Source: Candidatus Butyricicoccus avicola (lineage in GTDB: Bacteria; Bacillota; Clostridia; Oscillospirales; Butyricicoccaceae). Taken from it: a stretch of 64,000 nt of DNA. The translations under genes and the position numbers were made by a program. The stretch lies in NCBI GenBank assembly GCA_019119435.1, contig DWWZ01000154.1, positions 4,987 to 68,986 on the forward strand, written 5' to 3'. This document shows, piece after piece, positions 23,820 through 47,642 of the stretch (the first letter of the stretch is position 1; every line of letters begins with the position of its first letter). Under the pieces are notes generated by a model. The model saw only the letters and a program-made list of their open reading frames with translations, was not told the DNA's origin and searched no databases.

Positions 23820-23883
23820 AAAGGCATATATTTATACTTTATCATTTGCACTTTACCTCGCAAAACGAAGACGAAATTTCCTT

Positions 23884-24074
23884 CAGATAGAGGCGCGGTG
23901 TTCATCAGTATCGTCTGGGAGGGGCCGCAACCCCATTGACCACACGAAAAAGGGGCCACCGCCGAAGGTTTGCCCGGCGTTGCGGCGCGGCGGCCTGGAC
24001 GGCCCGGAAAAGATCCCGCCGTCTGTCACTGCATAGCACCCGATCAAAACGCTGTGCCGGTGGAGCGCTGTCTT
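23884..24074 (+). ncRNA. Lysine riboswitch (L-box) aptamer
   Basis: AGAGGCGC start, AGTA, GCCGAA, CTGTCA, GGAGCGCT end; P1 agatag/ctgtct; upstream of lysine biosynthesis genes; CCGGTT/AACCGG+T7 terminator at 24122-24144. Confidence 0.92.
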
Positions 24075-24202
24075 GGATGGTTGGGACAAGAATCCTGTCT
24101 TTCCATTATAGTGAGTCTATGCCGGTTTTTCAACCGGTTTTTTTCATATCTGCCTGGAATTTCGTCCAAACGGGGAACGGTGACAGGAGGCTCTCTAAAA
24201 TC

Positions 24203-40978: not shown

Positions 40979-41067
40979 TTCCCTTGCTTGACATTCCCTT
41001 TCTCCTGTGATATTATATACAAGCTGAGTTCATCAAGCAGATAGAACGCAGGTCATAAAATAGATAT

Positions 41068-41143
41068 CCGGGTGTAGCGCAGCTGGTAGCGTGCTTGACT
41101 GGGGGTCAAGAGGCCGCAGGTTCAAGTCCTGTCACTCGGACCA
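41068..41143 (+). tRNA. tRNA-Pro(GGG)
   Basis: Acceptor CCGGGTG/CACTCGG, anticodon arm CTTGA-CTGGGGG-TCAAG, GGTTCAAGTCC T-arm, encoded CCA; TTGACA promoter upstream. Confidence 0.97.
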
Positions 41144-41446
41144 AGAAAACCGCCTTTTTCGTAAGAAATTGGCGGTTTTTTTGCATATGAAGTTCAGAGT
41201 TGAAAACGCCAACCTGCAGCTTGTTCTTTATTTGTTCTTTATTGCCGCAAAACGCAGAAAACAGCATTTTCGATTGTGCGCAAAATCGTGTCAAAATCAA
41301 TTACAATCGCGTTTATACACGATAAATTGTTATAGAAATCATAAATTTGATAACACCCCAAACGAATATACAGTCAATGACATTTACTATCAAACTCTCG
41401 TGATTTTCTTTTCGATTGCTGGTTAATTGTTGCCATGATCATTTCG

Positions 41447-41589
41447 GCGTTTTGCCGATTGTATTTCCCTTGCACTTTGGTATAATAGGGGCGGTTGGTG
41501 TAAGGTCCAACCGCCCCTTTTGGGATTGGGTCTGCGGGTTGCTTTGACGTGCTACCGCAGGCCCTTACTTATGCCTTGCCCTTGCTGTC
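41447..41589 (+). repeat. Copy 1 of ~143-bp direct repeat (promoter plus two hairpins; putative sRNA)
   Basis: Near-identical to 43166-43309; TTGTAT..TATAAT, GGGGCGGTTGG/CCAACCGCCCC, GGGTCTGCGG/CCGCAGGCCC. Confidence 0.9.
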
Positions 41590-41961
41590 GCGGACGATCT
41601 GCGCGGCCGCCCCGCGCTTTCTAAACCGGTGGGATGCCCGGGATACATCCCCAGCTTCTTGATTCGCCGCCTTCGGCAATCCAGCCCCCCTGCCCGCGCA
41701 TCCGCTATGCTTTTTCCATGGCACTTTTCTGTTCTTTTCGAGCTTCCCGATATTGAATCTTTTCCCATATCCTGTTATAATATTTAAAAAGTTATAGATT
41801 TCTGTATGCCTTTATGGTCAAATTTAACAAAATCGATTGAATTTTTTATAATCTGTAACCCTGCATAGCAAATTCCGCAGCGCATCCCCGTGCCGCAGGC
41901 TTTTGTCCGCGCCGCGGGGCGCAAAATAGATTCAGTTTCCAACAAAGTAGGAGGGATTGCC

Positions 41962-43071
41962 TTGAAAAAGCAAATCTTATGTGGTACTGCTGCAGCATTA
42001 TGCCTGCTCGCGGGGACGGCCAAGGCAGATGTGACAGCCGTTCGGAACAACAGCCAATTGAACGTGAACGACGAGTGGGGATATTACCTGGATGTCTATA
42101 ATATCGGGGGGGCCAACTATTACAAGTTACGTGATATTATCTGCATTATGAACGGATGGCATGTCCCGGTCGGTTTGGAATACAACCAGAGCGCAAACCG
42201 GATTGATATCATTACCGGTGGGACCTACCAGATTCTTGGGACGGAATTACAGGCAACCGGGCAAAAGGCAACAGCCACCGCGCGGGAATCTGATATCCAG
42301 GTGTATGTGGACGGAAAACGGATGTCATTTGACGCCTATGAGATTGACGGCAGCACCTACTTTAAGCTGCGTGATCTGGCCGGACCGATTGGATTTGACG
42401 TGCAATATGATGCGGCGCAAGGCCAAGTCGCAATATACCCGGATAACAACGGCTTCAAACTTTTAGAGTACATGAACGATACCTATGGGACAAACCTGAC
42501 GCCTGCCGATGCGCCCAAGGACACCACGCCGCAATTTGATACGACCACCAAGGGGATGGATATCAAGACGGCCCTAAACCAGGCGCCGCTGAACCCCAAA
42601 AAGACCAAACTCGACGATCTGAACCAGTTGATCGAACAGTTTATGGCCGAATATTTTACGCCGGATATGGACACCTACACCAAGGCAAAGGTGACATACG
42701 ACTATATTATCAAAAATATGACCTACGGGACTCCGGATTTTGCGTTCGACACTTCGCCGGAGGGCAACGCGGGCTATATGTTCTTGACCCATCGCGGTGT
42801 GTGCGACCATTATTCTGCGTTTTTTGCGGCGATCATGCGGTATGTTGGGCTGGATATGCATGTGGTCAATGGCTCGACCCATGCGGCAAGCGGCGGCATG
42901 ACAGGGCATACTTGGACAACCGCCAGGATCAATGGCCTAGATTATGTGTTCGACCCCCAGATTGATCAGAACATCGGCGGAAAAAGCAATCCTACCTACT
43001 ATCGCTTTGGCAAACCCTATAGCGAACTCCCGGGCAAGTATGAGCCGTATGCATATAACGATTTTGAATAA
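41962..43071 (+). CDS. Secreted protein with Cu-amine-oxidase-N-like (stalk) repeats and transglutaminase-like domain
   Basis: TTG start after GGAGG; signal peptide; two Y.I.G..YxKLRD repeats; GVCDHYS, HTW, DP triad. Confidence 0.8.
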   Translation: MKKQILCGTAAALCLLAGTAKADVTAVRNNSQLNVNDEWGYYLDVYNIGGANYYKLRDIICIMNGWHVPVGLEYNQSANRIDIITGGTYQILGTELQATGQKATATARESDIQVYVDGKRMSFDAYEIDGSTYFKLRDLAGPIGFDVQYDAAQGQVAIYPDNNGFKLLEYMNDTYGTNLTPADAPKDTTPQFDTTTKGMDIKTALNQAPLNPKKTKLDDLNQLIEQFMAEYFTPDMDTYTKAKVTYDYIIKNMTYGTPDFAFDTSPEGNAGYMFLTHRGVCDHYSAFFAAIMRYVGLDMHVVNGSTHAASGGMTGHTWTTARINGLDYVFDPQIDQNIGGKSNPTYYRFGKPYSELPGKYEPYAYNDFE

Positions 43072-43165
43072 TCGGACGGCCCGGCGAAGGGCGTTCCGCG
43101 TAGGAGGCTGTCTCCAGCAGGCGATTTCCCGCTGTGCCTATCCGCAGTAAGCCGTCCTGATTTTA

Positions 43166-43309
43166 GCGTTTTGCCAATTGTATTTCCCCTACAGGATGCT
43201 TTATAATAGGGGCAGTTGGTGTAAGGTCCAACCGCCCTTTTGGGATTGGGTCTGCGGGTTGCTTGCTACTGCTGCCGCAGGCCCTTACTTATGCCTTGCC
43301 CTTGCTGTC
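43166..43309 (+). repeat. Copy 2 of ~143-bp direct repeat
   Basis: Same promoter and stems as copy 1; differences mostly in the promoter spacer and hairpin-2 loop. Confidence 0.9.
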
Positions 43310-43387
43310 ATGGGCAGGCCGGGCGATGCATCTGGCCTGTGCGGCATGAAATCGACCCGAAAGACAAAAACGAGGAGGGTTTACCCG

Positions 43388-44824
43388 ATGAGAAAAAAAG
43401 TGCTTGCCTTTGCAGTTGCGGCAGTCCTATCCATAAACGCTGCCGGCGCAGCCTCGCTGGTGGTGGACGGCGCGCAGGTACAGGCCGATGTCCCGCCGAT
43501 GATCGTCGATGGCCGCACGCTGGTCCCTGTGCGTGCGCTCTTCGAGTCTCTGGGTGCGACCGTAGACTGGGACGATGCCACCCAAACCGTGACGGCCGCC
43601 AAGGAGGGTACTGTCATCTCCATGCAGATCGGCAGCACGGCCGCTTCTGTGAACGGCGCTGCTCAGGTATTGGATGTCCCCGCCCAGACCATCGAGGGTC
43701 GCACGATGGTTCCGGCGCGCTTTGCCGCAGAATCGCTGGGCGCGCGCGTGCTCTGGGACAACAAGACACAGTCTGCGTACATTATTACCCCAGAGCATAA
43801 GTCTCTGGTCGTGGAATATCTGGACGTTGGGCAGGCCGACAGTATGCTGCTGTCCAGCAATGGCGAATATATGCTCATTGACGCCGGCAACAACGAGGAC
43901 GGCGACGATGTAGTTGAGTACCTCAAGAATGCCGGCGTGCGCACGCTCAAGTATGTCGTCGGCACCCATCCCCACGAGGATCATATCGGCGGTATGGATG
44001 ATGTCATCAACGCCTTTGATGTGCAGAATGTCCTGCTGGCCGATGCGACCTCCAATACGCAGACCTATTCCGATGTGCTGACCGCACTGGAAAACAAGAG
44101 CCTGACTGCGGTTGTTCCCGAGGTGGGCGCGACGTTCCCGCTCGGCGATGCCAATGTCACTGTGCTCGCCGCGCAGCCTGCCGAGGATCTAAACAATACG
44201 TCCATCGTCCTGCGGGCGACCTACCAGAACACCTCTTTCCTGTTCATGGGTGACGCGGAAGCCGAGGTCGAGGAGGCGATCCTGCAATCCGGCGCTGACA
44301 TCCAGAGCAATGTGCTCAAGGTCGGTCATCACGGTTCGGATACTTCGACGACCAGCAGTTTCCTTTCGGCAGTTTCCCCGGATGCGGCGGTGATCTGCTG
44401 CGGCGCTGGCAACAGCTATGGCCATCCGTCTCAGGCGACGCTGGACAAGCTCGCAGGCATCCCGGTCTGGCGCACCGATCTCAATGGCACCATCTACGCC
44501 ATGACCGACGGCGAGACCTGCCGGATCACGGCAAACAAGAGCGTTTCGGCTGCCCCGACCAAACAGCCGGATGCCCTGACCGAATCCCCTGTCCCGTCAG
44601 CGCCCGAAACCGCCGCGCCCTCCGCCCCATCGGTTTCCACGCCGTCCGGGCCGGAAACGGTACCCTCAAATCCCGCCACCGAGACCCACGCCAACGTCTA
44701 TGTGACCAAAACCGGTAAGCGGTACCATTATGACAGCCATTGCAACGGCGGCACCTACTATCCCAGCACGCTCGCTGACGCGCTGGCGCGTGGGCTGACA
44801 CCGTGCAACAAATGTGTCAAGTAA
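43388..44824 (+). CDS. Secreted stalk-domain + ComEC-like MBL-fold hydrolase with C-terminal Cys/His metal-binding module
   Basis: Signal peptide; GRTLVPVR stalk repeats; LDVGQAD, THPHEDHIGG, GDAE, KVGHHGS, YGHP; VYVTKTGKRYH...C...PCNKC. Confidence 0.88.
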   Translation: MRKKVLAFAVAAVLSINAAGAASLVVDGAQVQADVPPMIVDGRTLVPVRALFESLGATVDWDDATQTVTAAKEGTVISMQIGSTAASVNGAAQVLDVPAQTIEGRTMVPARFAAESLGARVLWDNKTQSAYIITPEHKSLVVEYLDVGQADSMLLSSNGEYMLIDAGNNEDGDDVVEYLKNAGVRTLKYVVGTHPHEDHIGGMDDVINAFDVQNVLLADATSNTQTYSDVLTALENKSLTAVVPEVGATFPLGDANVTVLAAQPAEDLNNTSIVLRATYQNTSFLFMGDAEAEVEEAILQSGADIQSNVLKVGHHGSDTSTTSSFLSAVSPDAAVICCGAGNSYGHPSQATLDKLAGIPVWRTDLNGTIYAMTDGETCRITANKSVSAAPTKQPDALTESPVPSAPETAAPSAPSVSTPSGPETVPSNPATETHANVYVTKTGKRYHYDSHCNGGTYYPSTLADALARGLTPCNKCVK

Positions 44825-44864
44825 ACGGCTTGACAACTTCACAGAAAGCGGCTATACTGAAAAC

Positions 44865-44957
44865 ATAAAAAAGGGCGCGTTGCCGGTAGACGGTTATGCC
44901 CTCAAAATTTTTTGATCGAAATGACCGCTAAGTTTGAGAGGCTTGGGCGGTCATTTT
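44865..44957 (+). ncRNA. Putative type I antitoxin antisense RNA
   Basis: TTGACA(44830)-17-TATACT(44853); terminator AAATGACCGC/GCGGTCATTT overlapping the stop of the opposite-strand peptide. Confidence 0.7.
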
Positions 44958-45025
44958 GCGTATGTAACGAAAATGAGAGCAACCAGTGCTGTAAACAGCA
45001 TGATGCGCAAAATCTTCTCATACAC
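44951..45025 (-). CDS. Putative type I toxin (24-aa holin-like hydrophobic peptide)
   Basis: AGGGGGTG RBS, GTG start: MYEKILRIMLFTALVALIFVTYAK; own promoter TTGAAA(45180)-17-TATCCT(45157). Confidence 0.7.
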   Translation of the reverse strand: MYEKILRIMLFTALVALIFVTYAK

Positions 45026-45181
45026 CGCGTTCACCCCCTTCCGGGTTGGATTGGGGAGAACTTCACCTCCTTCCCTTGAAGGATGGAGGGCAAATAACCG
45101 CCTACCGCTGGCACGGCAGCGCGCTGAAAAATAATTTTTTTCCTGCTCAACAGGATATCACAATTTGGAATAAATTTCAAC

Positions 45182-45211
45182 AAAAGCCCTCGGTTTCAGC
45201 CGAGGGCTTTT
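45182..45211. terminator. Terminator
   Basis: AAAAGCCCTCGG/CCGAGGGCTTTT. Confidence 0.8.
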
Positions 45212-45300
45212 GCAGACAGGTGTCTCCCGCTCAGCGATTGATTGTGCCAATCGGGACATGCTGTCCATAGGGATGCCGCCCCACCCGAAGGACCTCAAGG

Positions 45301-46242
45301 TCATCCAGCATCCCCCATATACCTGGCGAGATATTCCTCCAATTTTTCCATATATTGCGCGTACATCCGGTTGTCGTTCTGCAACCCGTGCCCGGAGTGC
45401 GGGAATTCAAAATAGTCGTATGGCACATGGTTTGCTTCCAAGGCCGCGATAAGCGGTTGGACGCTCAAGATGGGGCACACTTTATCGTGCTTCCCATACG
45501 CCAAGAGGGCAGGCACAGAACGCTCGTCAATCCAGCGGTCGGCGGAGATCGGCTTGACGGTCTCCAGGTATTCCCCGGAGCGGATCATTTCCGGCGTGAT
45601 CGCCGTGCCGGACATCGTGCCAAACAGGTTTGCGGCCGCTTCCGGGTTTTTGTCCAGGCCATAGTTCGTCCAGTCCTCAAAATGAAAGCTGGCTGGGCCG
45701 ACCATCTCGAACACCATCTTGACCGGGATGGGGGCCGTACCGGCGTCCCGGTAGGCGTAGACCAGCGCCAGCGTGCCGCCCGCGCTGCCTCCGGCGACCG
45801 CCATCCGGTCCAGCGGATAGCCCAGCTCCTCGGCCGCGGCGACCACATGGGGCATCGCATTTTTCACGTCCATGGTCTGCGAATAGACACTTACCGTGGG
45901 ATTTTCCTGGCTAAACAAGGTGTAGTTGATGCCGGCGGTCACATACCCTTTGGCGCATAGCCATTTCAAAATACCTGCATCGCCGCGCTTGTCTCCACTG
46001 GTAAAGCCCCCAGCATGGAGATAGACGATCAGTCCATAGTGCTCCTTCGTATGCCCGGCAGGGACATACAAATCAAACCGATTTGCTTCCCCGTCCCCAT
46101 AGGCAAGGTCGGTGTAGACCGTCCCGACCGAATCGTCCCAATCCACGGTATACTTGCCGTGGAACGGGTCGGCTGTCATCTTGACCGCTGCGGACCCGAG
46201 GAATGCGGCGAGAAACGTCCCAACATAAATCAGCCCCCACAT
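45301..46242 (-). CDS. Alpha/beta hydrolase (esterase) with N-terminal membrane anchor
   Basis: HAGGF oxyanion motif, GGSAG nucleophile elbow, D and H near the C-terminus. Confidence 0.85.
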   Translation of the reverse strand: MWGLIYVGTFLAAFLGSAAVKMTADPFHGKYTVDWDDSVGTVYTDLAYGDGEANRFDLYVPAGHTKEHYGLIVYLHAGGFTSGDKRGDAGILKWLCAKGYVTAGINYTLFSQENPTVSVYSQTMDVKNAMPHVVAAAEELGYPLDRMAVAGGSAGGTLALVYAYRDAGTAPIPVKMVFEMVGPASFHFEDWTNYGLDKNPEAAANLFGTMSGTAITPEMIRSGEYLETVKPISADRWIDERSVPALLAYGKHDKVCPILSVQPLIAALEANHVPYDYFEFPHSGHGLQNDNRMYAQYMEKLEEYLARYMGDAG

Positions 46243-46268
46243 AAGCCTCCCCTTTCTTTTTGTCCGTT

Positions 46269-46403
46269 TCACAGGAAATTCCCTCCAAACAGCGTGCCGC
46301 CCAGCAGCAGGTTCATGGCGGCCCGGACAGCCAGACGCCCCAGCACAACGGCGGCGACGGCCACCGCCGCCAGGACGAGCAGCCGCTTCGGCAGGATCGG
46401 CAT
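46269..46403 (-). CDS. 44-aa hydrophobic peptide
   Basis: AAGGAGG RBS; MPILPKRLLVLAAVAVAAVVLGRLAVRAAMNLLLGGTLFGGNFL. Confidence 0.5.
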   Translation of the reverse strand: MPILPKRLLVLAAVAVAAVVLGRLAVRAAMNLLLGGTLFGGNFL

Positions 46404-46466
46404 GAGATCCCCTCCTTGACATTTTGTTGGGACGATTGTATCATAATGCATATCGATGGGTCAATC

Positions 46467-46485
46467 GTCTCATCAAAAATGAGAC
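46467..46485. promoter_or_regulatory. Putative TetR operator
   Basis: GTCTCAT-N5-ATGAGAC palindrome between divergent TetR and hydrolase genes. Confidence 0.55.
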
Positions 46486-46510
46486 AAACGGGGAGGATTT
46501 GTATCAGGCC

Positions 46511-47023
46511 ATGCGTGCAAGCAACCAGGAAAAGAACAGCTATGTCCGCCGCCAGATCCTGCATACGCTGCTGGAGATGATGCGCGAACAGGAATTCCAG
46601 GACATCGTCATCAGCAGGCTGACCGCGCGCGCCGGGGTCGGCCGGGCTTCTTTCTACCGGAACTTTACGGGCAAAGAAGACGTGCTGCGGCAGGAGGCCG
46701 ACCGCCTGGCAAGGGAATGGCAGCAGCAGTATGACCGGCAGGCGCACGCTGCGCCGTCCGAAGTGCTCGTCAGCCTGTTGGACTTTTACAAGGCCCATTC
46801 CGCCTTCTACCTCGCGCTATACCGGGCCGGGCTGTCCGAGATCGTGCTGGGCACCCTTTTGGAGCAGGCAGAGGTCTCGCCCGACCTTCCAAACGCCGTG
46901 GCATACCTGCGCGCTTCGGTCGCCTATATGATATTTGGCTGGGTCGTCGAGTGGATGAAGCGGGGCATGCCGGAAAGCGGCACCGAATTGGCAAAAATGA
47001 TCGCAGACGCACAGGCGCGATGA
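46511..47023 (+). CDS. TetR/AcrR family regulator
   Basis: ISRLTARAGVGRASFYRNF HTH; EWMKRGMPES C-terminus. Confidence 0.9.
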   Translation: MRASNQEKNSYVRRQILHTLLEMMREQEFQDIVISRLTARAGVGRASFYRNFTGKEDVLRQEADRLAREWQQQYDRQAHAAPSEVLVSLLDFYKAHSAFYLALYRAGLSEIVLGTLLEQAEVSPDLPNAVAYLRASVAYMIFGWVVEWMKRGMPESGTELAKMIADAQAR

Positions 47024-47099
47024 TGCGTGGCCGGCCGCAGCGGACGCGCCGCTGCGCCAGCCGGGCCGCACAGGCCAATCGGAAAGGAGAGCTGCCCAA

Positions 47100-47642
47100 A
47101 TGGCAAAGATCAAGTCCATCCTTTTTGCAGCCGGGATCCTGCTGCTCATCGGGGCGGCCGCCTGCCTCTATCTGGGCCTGCGCGGCCTCGCCGGGGTGCG
47201 GCCCGCGGCCGCCTACGTTGACCAGGGCGTGCACACCTTTGTGCCAAGCGCGGTTTACCCGGTCCAGGTGGAAAACCACGCCACCGGGCGGGACAAGCGC
47301 AACCACCCCACCCGGACCGTCTACATGGTCGCCTACCGCGCCACGGACGGCAGCGGCTATACCTATCGGTCTGCGGCCGGTGCGGCCGAGCAGACCGCCC
47401 GGCAGATCGTAGCGGCCGGCGAGCCGGTCACGCGGCGGGTGCTGTCCGTCCCGCAGGACGGCGTCTCTGTCACGGTGGAGGCCGACCAGACGGCGCAGTC
47501 CTATGTGGCCGGGCAGCGGAAAACCTATGGCGCCATGGCCGGGGCCTCGCTGGCATACCTGCTGATATGGGCCGCCGTCCATGTGGGCGTGGCCTATCGA
47601 AGACGCCGGCAGGGCCGGCACAGCAAACGAACAGGAGAATGA
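47100..47642 (+). CDS. Hypothetical membrane protein (2 TM)
   Basis: AAGGAG RBS; hydrophobic segments at both ends; overlaps next start. Confidence 0.65.
   Translation: MAKIKSILFAAGILLLIGAAACLYLGLRGLAGVRPAAAYVDQGVHTFVPSAVYPVQVENHATGRDKRNHPTRTVYMVAYRATDGSGYTYRSAAGAAEQTARQIVAAGEPVTRRVLSVPQDGVSVTVEADQTAQSYVAGQRKTYGAMAGASLAYLLIWAAVHVGVAYRRRRQGRHSKRTGE

Follow-up and report, generated by a model that had tools for sequence, protein, structure and literature searches.

A stretch of 64 kb from Candidatus Butyricicoccus avicola (contig DWWZ01000154.1, positions 4,987 to 68,986 of the forward strand; referred to hereafter as the window) contains two direct copies of an unannotated unit of about 160 base pairs (bp), in which a promoter-like sequence is followed by two hairpins and, on the opposite strand, by the tail of an open reading frame (ORF). 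The question raised by this locus is where such a module originates and what it may do. Comparison with related genomes and viral contigs makes it likely that each copy is the orphaned relic of a regulatory module of temperate phages, and of at least one Rep3 plasmid-like element, of the gut Oscillospirales. In its intact form, the module would specify a short antisense RNA directed against the early operon of the phage.

Two copies of the module in the window

The two copies, located at 41432-41589 and 43151-43309 (repeat finder segments D1-D3, pairwise alignment), share 88% identity (E 4e-46, BLAST within the genome) and were the only ones returned by BLAST from the 1.9-Mb assembly, which is 80% complete. 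The covariance model of the module family likewise gave two matches in the window, both on the + strand, at 41458-41570 (69.4 bits) and 43177-43290 (65.0 bits). The initial annotation of this stretch had described a duplicated promoter plus two-hairpin module, and every element that it listed is present at both copies (Table 1). In copy 1, a TG extension is found at 41478-41479 and the predicted start site lies near 41493, within the 5' arm of hairpin 1; the RNA of copy 2 is predicted to span about 43214-43291. The two hairpins, the first of which is GC-rich, are joined in each copy by a short U/G-rich linker, and the stem of hairpin 2 is the same in both while the 17-nucleotide (nt) loops differ. 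Hairpin 1 of copy 2 had been credited with a single A substitution, which is accurate for the A at 43214, a G-to-A change coinciding with the predicted +1, and incomplete for the 3' arm, where one C is also missing. A minus-strand frame ending in ...DSKGKA-stop was seen in both copies, as previously described, and the 13 family-like residues of copy 1 (41572-41610) correspond to positions 29-41 of the profile of a small ORF discussed below. Folding of the module is better than that of shuffled sequences on both strands (z -2.9 to -5.4).

The ORFs called across the module, such as a frame of 51 amino acids (aa) at 41569-41724, are not genes. A dispersed repeat resembling repetitive extragenic palindromes (REP) or miniature inverted-repeat transposable elements (MITE) was ruled out by the copy number of two; among the relatives, the module occurs one to four times per genome, in 27 of 151 genomes. 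The initial annotation had also suggested a scan for a known RNA family, which was not found in the window or in its relatives. With Rfam 15 at the gathering score, the window yielded only a lysine riboswitch and tRNA-Pro, and a permissive scan of 41000-43700 gave no match over the modules; in 16 relatives with intact modules only tRNA and transfer-messenger RNA (tmRNA) were recovered, and a permissive scan of L054 and L018 returned nothing significant. The lysine riboswitch (RF00168, 82 bits) lies at 23880-24078 on the + strand. Searching the INPHARED phage collection with the module DNA produced no match, and no description of the module was found in the literature searched. The single plasmid match in PLSDB, a 26-nt exact identity (window 41452-41477) common to three Enterococcus faecalis plasmids (LR962011, LR962018, and LR962848), is probably a chance occurrence, since the stretch is unrelated, no module is present there, and the best covariance-model score is 9.8 bits.

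The lost small open reading frame

A search of the taxonomic family located the module in a genome of the same genus (L007) and in another genus (L008); in both cases it immediately follows an intact small ORF, encoded on the other strand, that ends in ...DSKVKA. The existence of such an ORF paired with the module had been anticipated in the initial annotation. Searching with the ORF revealed 57 loci in Oscillospirales genomes and 65 viral contigs in IMG/VR, mostly of 30-45 kb, and in every one of these loci (>120) the module lies behind the small ORF. Names on the records include Butyricicoccus, Agathobaculum, Angelakisella, Oscillibacter, Flavonifractor, Flintibacter, and Anaerotruncus. The resemblance to small ORFs in mobile elements of gut Clostridia, suggested at the outset, was correct. 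The comparative set drawn from these loci comprises 84 distinct modules, all oriented like the + strand of the window and all with the same two hairpins behind the ORF. This recurrent arrangement argues for the original proposal of a + strand RNA of about 75-80 nt that would be antisense to the 3' flank of a small gene since lost.

The ORF is 41 aa in length and highly conserved (alignment A2), with ATG, GTG, or TTG as its first codon. No family was assigned to it in Pfam or PHROGs, where the matches were at chance level alone. The sequence is acidic and hydrophilic, with a grand average of hydropathy (GRAVY) of -0.41, an isoelectric point (pI) of 4.8, and no 15-residue window above 0.11, and neither a membrane segment nor a hydrophobic stretch was found in it. 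AlphaFold models a two-helix hairpin with a predicted local distance difference test (pLDDT) score of 87.6, such that the product is predicted to be a soluble two-helix peptide. The ORF-family profile detected no intact small ORF in the window genome (assembly 80% complete). The copies in the window are regarded as orphans: neither the ORF nor the repressor gene nor the phage genes that would follow are left there, and a cognate target was not found in the assembly.

Promoter, hairpins, and terminator across relatives

The + strand appears to carry a sigma-A-type promoter, which is retained throughout the family. TTG is present at the -35 position in 84/84 modules, the spacer measures 17 nt in 78 of them and 16-18 nt in all, and a TG extension is found in 47. 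Within the -10 element, T1 (84), A2 (84), A5 (82), and T6 (84) are maintained while the two middle positions are variable, the variation being confined to positions that sigma-70-type promoters tolerate. The promoter persists even in those modules that have no Shine-Dalgarno (SD) sequence nearby (the window type, L035, L059, L063, and L090), and this persistence favours a real promoter.

Covariation among homologues, proposed earlier as a check, is strong in both hairpins. In a covariance-model alignment of 81 modules, 95.4% of the cells were paired and 21/21 pairs change on both sides; none of 500 shuffles reached the real value, and slid registers gave 42-55% paired. The covariance-model alignment is fitted to the structure whereas the MAFFT alignment is not, and the latter still showed 87% paired cells and double changes in 22 of 28 pairs. 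All 12 pairs of hairpin 1 and all nine of hairpin 2 covary.

Hairpin 2 would serve as an intrinsic terminator for a + strand transcript only, given that the G·U pairs and the U-tract occur in that sense alone. In the + sense, hairpin 2 shows 40 G·U against 0 A·C cells; when the strands were folded on their own, without any alignment, 213 G·U pairs were counted in the + sense as opposed to three, with mean folding energies of -21.4 versus -15.8 kcal/mol (a difference of 5.6). The 8 nt past hairpin 2 contain on average 5.5 T in the + sense and 0.4 in the other. A terminator scan marks the same hairpin on the same strand in L054, where the promoter is flagged as well. The U-tract is also the complement of the stop codon of the ORF. 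Taken together, promoter and terminator predict a discrete RNA of about 78 nt (74-90 nt, median 78), in line with the short RNA originally envisaged.

Pairings on the early mRNA strand

The opposite strand, which forms part of the early mRNA, displays conserved complementarities of its own. The loop of hairpin 1 (GCCUUAC) is complementary to a heptamer, GUAAGGC, situated 14 nt downstream, with at least six contiguous pairs in 73 of the 84 modules, a compensatory double change in L033, and a shifted register in the window-type elements. In addition, sequence at the 3' foot of hairpin 1 can pair with the SD region of the gene that follows, over at least 6 bp in 61 of the 84 modules, and the two partner sequences, anti-SD and SD, change together, even where the SD sequence is farther off.

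It was further observed that the heptamer GUAAGGC occurs three times per intact element (for example L054:2940-3250, L033, and L018), namely at the 5' end of the small-ORF mRNA, 14 nt past hairpin 1, and in the hairpin 1 loop of the antisense RNA. At the first of these sites, GTAAGG is present in 69 of the 78 distinct upstream regions compared; L033 alters all three sites together, and the window-type elements have a shifted version at all three. The triple heptamer could represent a long-range RNA pairing or a common binding site.

Context in intact elements and proposed mechanism

Upstream of the small ORF, a divergent gene encodes a protein of 70-85 aa with a Cro/CI-type helix-turn-helix (HTH_26 or Phage_CI_repr) or, in some loci, a ribbon-helix-helix, and back-to-back promoter candidates are found between the two genes. 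Many small early genes follow the module, and in several loci a tRNA or tmRNA gene is located about 1 kb away. The small ORF thus opens a phage early operon. Its presence in 65 IMG/VR contigs, together with the divergent Cro/CI-type gene, places the module in the immunity/early region of temperate phages.

From the homology, promoter conservation, covariation, strand asymmetry, and context described so far, we infer a transcript and its mode of action as follows. In intact elements, a repressor gene that has a promoter of its own is followed by the early promoter, which points the other way, by the 41-aa ORF, and then by the module. The antisense transcript would start inside hairpin 1, the upper part of which is kept as a 5' stem-loop, and end at the U-tract of hairpin 2, exactly at the stop codon of the ORF, so as to give an RNA of about 78 nt with full complementarity to the interval that separates the small ORF from the early gene after it. 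The mRNA may switch between the lower stem of hairpin 1 and the helix that hides the SD sequence, an equilibrium that the antisense RNA would displace through pairing with hairpin 1 and with all of the sequence 5' of it. The expression level of the early genes downstream would most likely be set by duplex formation and refolding, or else by promoter collision; duplex cleavage and promoter collision are conceivable as equally possible modes. In the window, two intact-looking RNA genes would remain as relics in an island of low guanine plus cytosine (GC) content at tRNA-Pro, copy 2 of which may also supply the promoter and leader of the gene that follows it (gene 2). The possibility that the module promoter is the promoter of the repressor gene, comparable to lambda pRE, was also considered and is weakened by the promoter candidate that the repressor gene itself possesses.

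Alleles, relatives, and module shuffling

The nearest relatives of the window copies are L018/L007 (a Rep3 replicon) and the viral contigs L092, L111, and L196/L202. The differences between the two copies fall into two blocks, the promoter spacer and the loop of hairpin 2, and these are combined in opposite ways: copy 1 has the spacer type of L092 with the loop type of L111, and copy 2 has the spacer type of L111/L018 with the loop of L092 (one mismatch). The diverged loops noted at the outset are thus alleles common to different phages. A metagenome contig of a sister strain of the same species (L198, corresponding to window 42476-47191) is 98.9% identical over 4.7 kb and has module 2 at the same junction, with hairpin 1 intact (G at 43214, the extra C present); in it, six consecutive loop bases (43265-43270) differ and match the other allele, against a background divergence of about 1%. 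The loops are therefore exchangeable alleles and not products of drift, and the six-base block has the look of alleles exchanged through recombination, as opposed to point mutation. A simple local duplication followed by loop drift was rejected as the whole story in view of this block and of the mosaic of spacers and loops from different phage alleles. The Gly codon of ...DSKGKA, common to both copies and absent from the intact ORFs listed, suggests one common relic that was later patched by recombination.

The module and the ORF shuffle independently, with the breakpoint at the terminator/stop codon. In the 36.8-kb viral contig L196/L202, a module near-identical to copy 1 stands behind an unrelated 44-aa helical ORF. 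The 5' untranslated region of L196/L202 is the same as that of L018. With the covariance model, 39 matches were obtained from the 151 family genomes, all in the 27 mentioned above, and of the 22 best matches for which the flanks were read, 19 have an intact helical ORF of 35-45 aa ending at the terminator; the other three are the two window copies and one in G118. The intact ORFs paired with the module belong to at least four helical families. A second, divergent module (51 bits) was seen in the viral contig L101 (2852-2971, - strand), 1.2 kb from the first and with no small ORF of at least 35 aa before it; it fronts another early gene, and the module can therefore recur within one phage.

The tRNA-Pro island and neighbouring genes

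The copies are situated in a low-GC island; the GC content is 42-53% from 41200 to 43200, as compared with 63-70% in the flanks, which include a gene read as spoIVA. The coordinates of the features are collected in Table 1.

Table 1. Features of the two modules and of the tRNA-Pro island, in window coordinates
Feature	Coordinates	Strand	Description and basis
tRNA-Pro (GGG)	41068..41143	+	Left edge of the island; ARAGORN, Rfam
Module copy 1, entire	41432..41610	+	Shared flank, promoter, two hairpins, small-ORF remnant; aligned with relatives L092, L111, L018
Copy 1 promoter, candidate	41459..41486	+	-35 TTGTAT 41459-41464, 16-nt spacer, -10 TATAAT 41481-41486
Copy 1 hairpin 1 (family hairpin B)	41488..41517	+	11-bp stem, 8-nt loop; fold
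Copy 1 predicted small RNA	41493..41571	+	About 79 nt, starting 7 nt past the -10 and ending with the U-tract; both ends inferred
Copy 1 hairpin 2 (family hairpin A)	41528..41564	+	U-rich tail TTACTTAT 41565-41572; predicted intrinsic terminator
Copy 1 small-ORF remnant	41569..41610	-	Last 13 codons and stop; ORF list, 41-aa family profile
Gene 1	41962..43071	+	Secreted, transglutaminase-like core (Pfam)
Module copy 2, entire	43151..43309	+	Repeat finder, alignment, BLAST, covariance model
Copy 2 promoter, candidate	43178..43207	+	-35 TTGTAT 43178-43183, 18-nt spacer, -10 TATAAT 43202-43207
Copy 2 hairpin 1	43209..43237	+	A·C mismatch (A at 43214); 3' arm without one C
Copy 2 hairpin 2	43248..43284	+	U-rich tail TTACTTAT 43285-43292; other loop allele
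Copy 2 small-ORF remnant	43289..43309	-	Last 6 codons and stop
Gene 2	43388..44824	+	Secreted, copper-amine-oxidase N-terminal-like domain, metallo-beta-lactamase fold (Pfam)

Further pieces of phage DNA are recognisable on both sides of the modules. The segment 41348-41394 matches DNA about 1.4 kb beyond the small ORF in the phage L111, and also in L082, L083, and L092, whereas 44828-45180 matches a locus adjoining the block of Cro/CI-like gene, small ORF, and module in L016, and also in L172, L156, and L046. The order and orientation of the latter match in L016 fit the minus strand of the window, which implies that gene 2 occupies the place of the repressor gene and of the 5' part of the ORF. 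The tRNA-Pro island is a patchwork prophage end. Genes 1 and 2 were rejected as regular phage cargo, as no similar gene adjoins any other module that was read. An orthologue of gene 2 that is 89% identical is found in a genome of the same genus (G038), where it has no module.

Directly past gene 2, at 44828-45200, there is a third conserved and unrelated locus, 72-73% identical to that of L016, in which an ORF for a 27-aa hydrophobic peptide (44951-45034, - strand), with an SD sequence and followed by a hairpin, faces a near-consensus promoter candidate on the + strand (44830-44858). From this layout the locus looks like a type I toxin-antitoxin pair of the same prophage end; Rfam returned no family for it. 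A second side observation concerns window 41099-41241, comprising the 3' part of tRNA-Pro, its terminator, and a 60-nt flank, which recurs at 92% identity in G038:C33 (L150), about 2 kb from the gene 2 orthologue. ARAGORN found no complete tRNA in the 19 kb around this copy, which looks like a partial tRNA of the attachment-site (att) type, and gene 2 may travel with the tRNA-Pro island.

Alternative explanations

Several points weigh against a dedicated antisense RNA gene as the origin of these copies. The start site and the 3' end of the RNA are inferred from consensus spacing, and the -35 and -10 elements overlap the two strands of the anti-SD/SD helix in most phage copies, so that some of the conservation seen in the promoter could be due to the mRNA. 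The G+T-rich composition of the strand could likewise explain some of the G·U asymmetry. The lower stem of hairpin 1, which lies upstream of the predicted start, also covaries (31 G·U versus 19 A·C), and hence the RNA of the opposite strand would be structured too and the module would not be solely a small RNA gene. In the window itself, the weak -35 (TTGTAT) and the interrupted U-tract (TTACTTAT) make read-through likely, and the loop-to-heptamer pairing missing from copy 1 and the damaged hairpin 1 of copy 2 both fit plain decay.

According to the alternative that survives best, the copies are plain debris, that is, two decaying fragments of prophage ends, one of them possibly a local duplicate of the other, with no present function and an intact look that merely reflects their young age. 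Each copy has a defect, the cognate target was not found in the assembly, the derived Gly codon shared by both suggests one common relic, and the island is itself a patchwork of phage pieces. Against this, none of the defects touches the promoter hexamers, the upper half of the hairpin 1 structure, or hairpin 2 with its tail, two other samples contain the locus at 99-99.7% identity, and only the three above-mentioned cases among the 22 best family matches with flanks read have no intact small ORF beside the module. Plain relic status is a serious possibility, though less likely than not.

A second proposal, which is compatible with relics of an antisense RNA module and had been raised in the initial annotation as an attenuating leader of the downstream genes, is that the copies were co-opted here as promoter and attenuating 5' leader of gene 2, and possibly of gene 1. 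Transcription would start at the module promoter and stop partially at hairpin 2, and read-through would express the gene. Both copies are directed toward a gene, the interrupted U-tract of the window would be expected to terminate leakily, and the junction with gene 2 is retained in the sister strain. A promoter scan of the 80 nt that separate copy 2 from the gene 2 start codon gave no other candidate, and copy 2 may thus drive gene 2. Gene 1, however, has two better and closer promoter candidates of its own (41753-41781 and 41824-41852), which leaves this part of the earlier suggestion unsupported; moreover, the G038 orthologue of gene 2 does without a module, no other locus read pairs the module with such genes, and the repressor gene lying downstream in this direction in intact elements has its own promoter. 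On balance, co-option as a leader is doubtful, with gene 2 as its more credible case.

It has also to be considered that the module acts solely on the ORF strand, as a structured spacer between the cistrons of the early mRNA that works as an RNA stabiliser or processing site and as a translational operator hiding the SD sequence of the next gene, the opposite promoter being a by-product and no small RNA being made. The loop-to-heptamer and anti-SD/SD pairings are indeed widespread, with partners that change together, the lower stem of hairpin 1 covaries despite its position upstream of the predicted antisense start, and the -35 and the flank of the -10 coincide in most copies with the two strands of the SD helix. 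Nevertheless, an exclusive role on this strand is improbable, considering that TTG, a spacing of 16-18 nt, and TAnnnT are found in 84/84 modules, including the classes with no SD/anti-SD pair nearby, that the -10 varies just where sigma-70-type promoters allow, and that the G·U pairs and U-tract of hairpin 2 are confined to the antisense strand.

An extension of the antisense RNA reading, for which the odds are similarly long, and which takes up the guarding role against incoming elements suggested at the outset, is that the host keeps the orphan RNA genes as decoy immunity RNAs. Each gene has its own allele of the variable blocks (promoter spacer and hairpin 2 loop) and would match a different incoming phage or plasmid lineage of this family. 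Such RNAs would pair with the early mRNA of the invader and shut its early operon, and recombination with invaders would swap the alleles, which would explain the six-base block that separates two strains 99% identical.

Orphan type I antitoxin RNAs whose small toxin gene was lost, the antitoxin-like role proposed initially, are highly improbable: the combination of a small ORF with a convergent RNA that terminates at a hairpin common to both does resemble the layout of par of pAD1 and of txpA/RatA, and a separate locus for a hydrophobic, type I toxin-like peptide is found in the same island, but the 41-aa ORF is acidic, hydrophilic, without a membrane segment, and predicted to form a soluble two-helix hairpin, it heads an early operon beside a Cro/CI-type repressor gene instead of standing alone, the predicted RNA overlaps just its stop codon and neither its ribosome-binding site nor its coding region, and the module is paired with at least four unrelated families of small helical ORFs.

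Comparison with known systems

The antisense RNA predicted for the intact module finds its closest analogue, judging by layout, in the phage oop-type antisense RNAs, although its family would be a new one, in which promoter and mRNA structure are interleaved in an unusual way. The OOP RNA of lambda is about 77 nt long. Lambda oop has its promoter where the next gene starts and its terminator hairpin where the preceding gene ends, with transcription leftward against the pR operon (PMC5869508). Like OOP, with its pO and tO, the module would produce a short RNA from its own promoter, convergent to an early operon; this RNA would stop at an intrinsic terminator located where a small early gene has its 3' end, and would be complementary to the sequence between this gene and its downstream neighbour. 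Unlike OOP, with which it has no sequence or Rfam relationship, the module RNA would overlap just the stop codon of its partner, as compared with 52 nt of the cII coding sequence in lambda, and the partner is a 41-aa two-helix peptide encoded first after the early promoter as opposed to a cII-like activator. The interleaving of the module promoter with the SD-hiding helix and with the loop-to-heptamer pairing on the mRNA strand also sets it apart from OOP. OOP lowers the overlapped mRNA in an RNase III-dependent manner.

A 3' overlap is likewise characteristic of several type I loci, including par RNA I/RNA II-Fst of pAD1 and txpA/RatA and bsrG/SR4 of Bacillus subtilis. As in these loci, the small ORF and the convergent RNA of the module meet at a terminator hairpin in mobile elements or prophages; unlike them, the hydrophobic toxin is absent, the ORF heads an operon, and the overlap is minimal. 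The phage immunity RNAs P22 sar, P1/P7 c4, and P4 CI RNA are small RNAs that act on early transcripts, and sequence variants of c4 define the immunity specificities of P1 and P7, which would offer an analogy for the allelic loops of the module. However, c4 and P4 CI are processed from longer transcripts and have separate targets, in contrast to the module, which appears to be a self-contained unit from promoter to terminator that is antisense to its target. Finally, RNA I of pT181, RNA III of pIP501, and CopA of R1 resemble the predicted RNA in that a stem-loop RNA binds the complementary stem-loop of a nascent mRNA and switches its fold, the candidate alternative folds of the module being the lower stem of hairpin 1 and the anti-SD/SD helix. 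These plasmid RNAs control rep genes by attenuation or leader-peptide coupling, whereas the switch in the module is deduced from complementarity alone.

Concluding remarks

To our knowledge, almost nothing is known about phage regulation in this bacterial group. The module described here is an unannotated regulatory RNA module, absent from Rfam, that belongs to the region controlling lysis and lysogeny in temperate phages of butyrate-producing gut bacteria; for this module the evidence is unusually clean, with more than 80 distinct sequences, full covariation, and a clear strand asymmetry, and cultured lysogens allow direct testing. The puzzling repeat in this genome is accounted for by such a phage module. 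Orphan copies with alleles that differ between strains also offer a concrete way into the question of whether antisense RNAs from phages are kept by bacteria to serve as immunity determinants.

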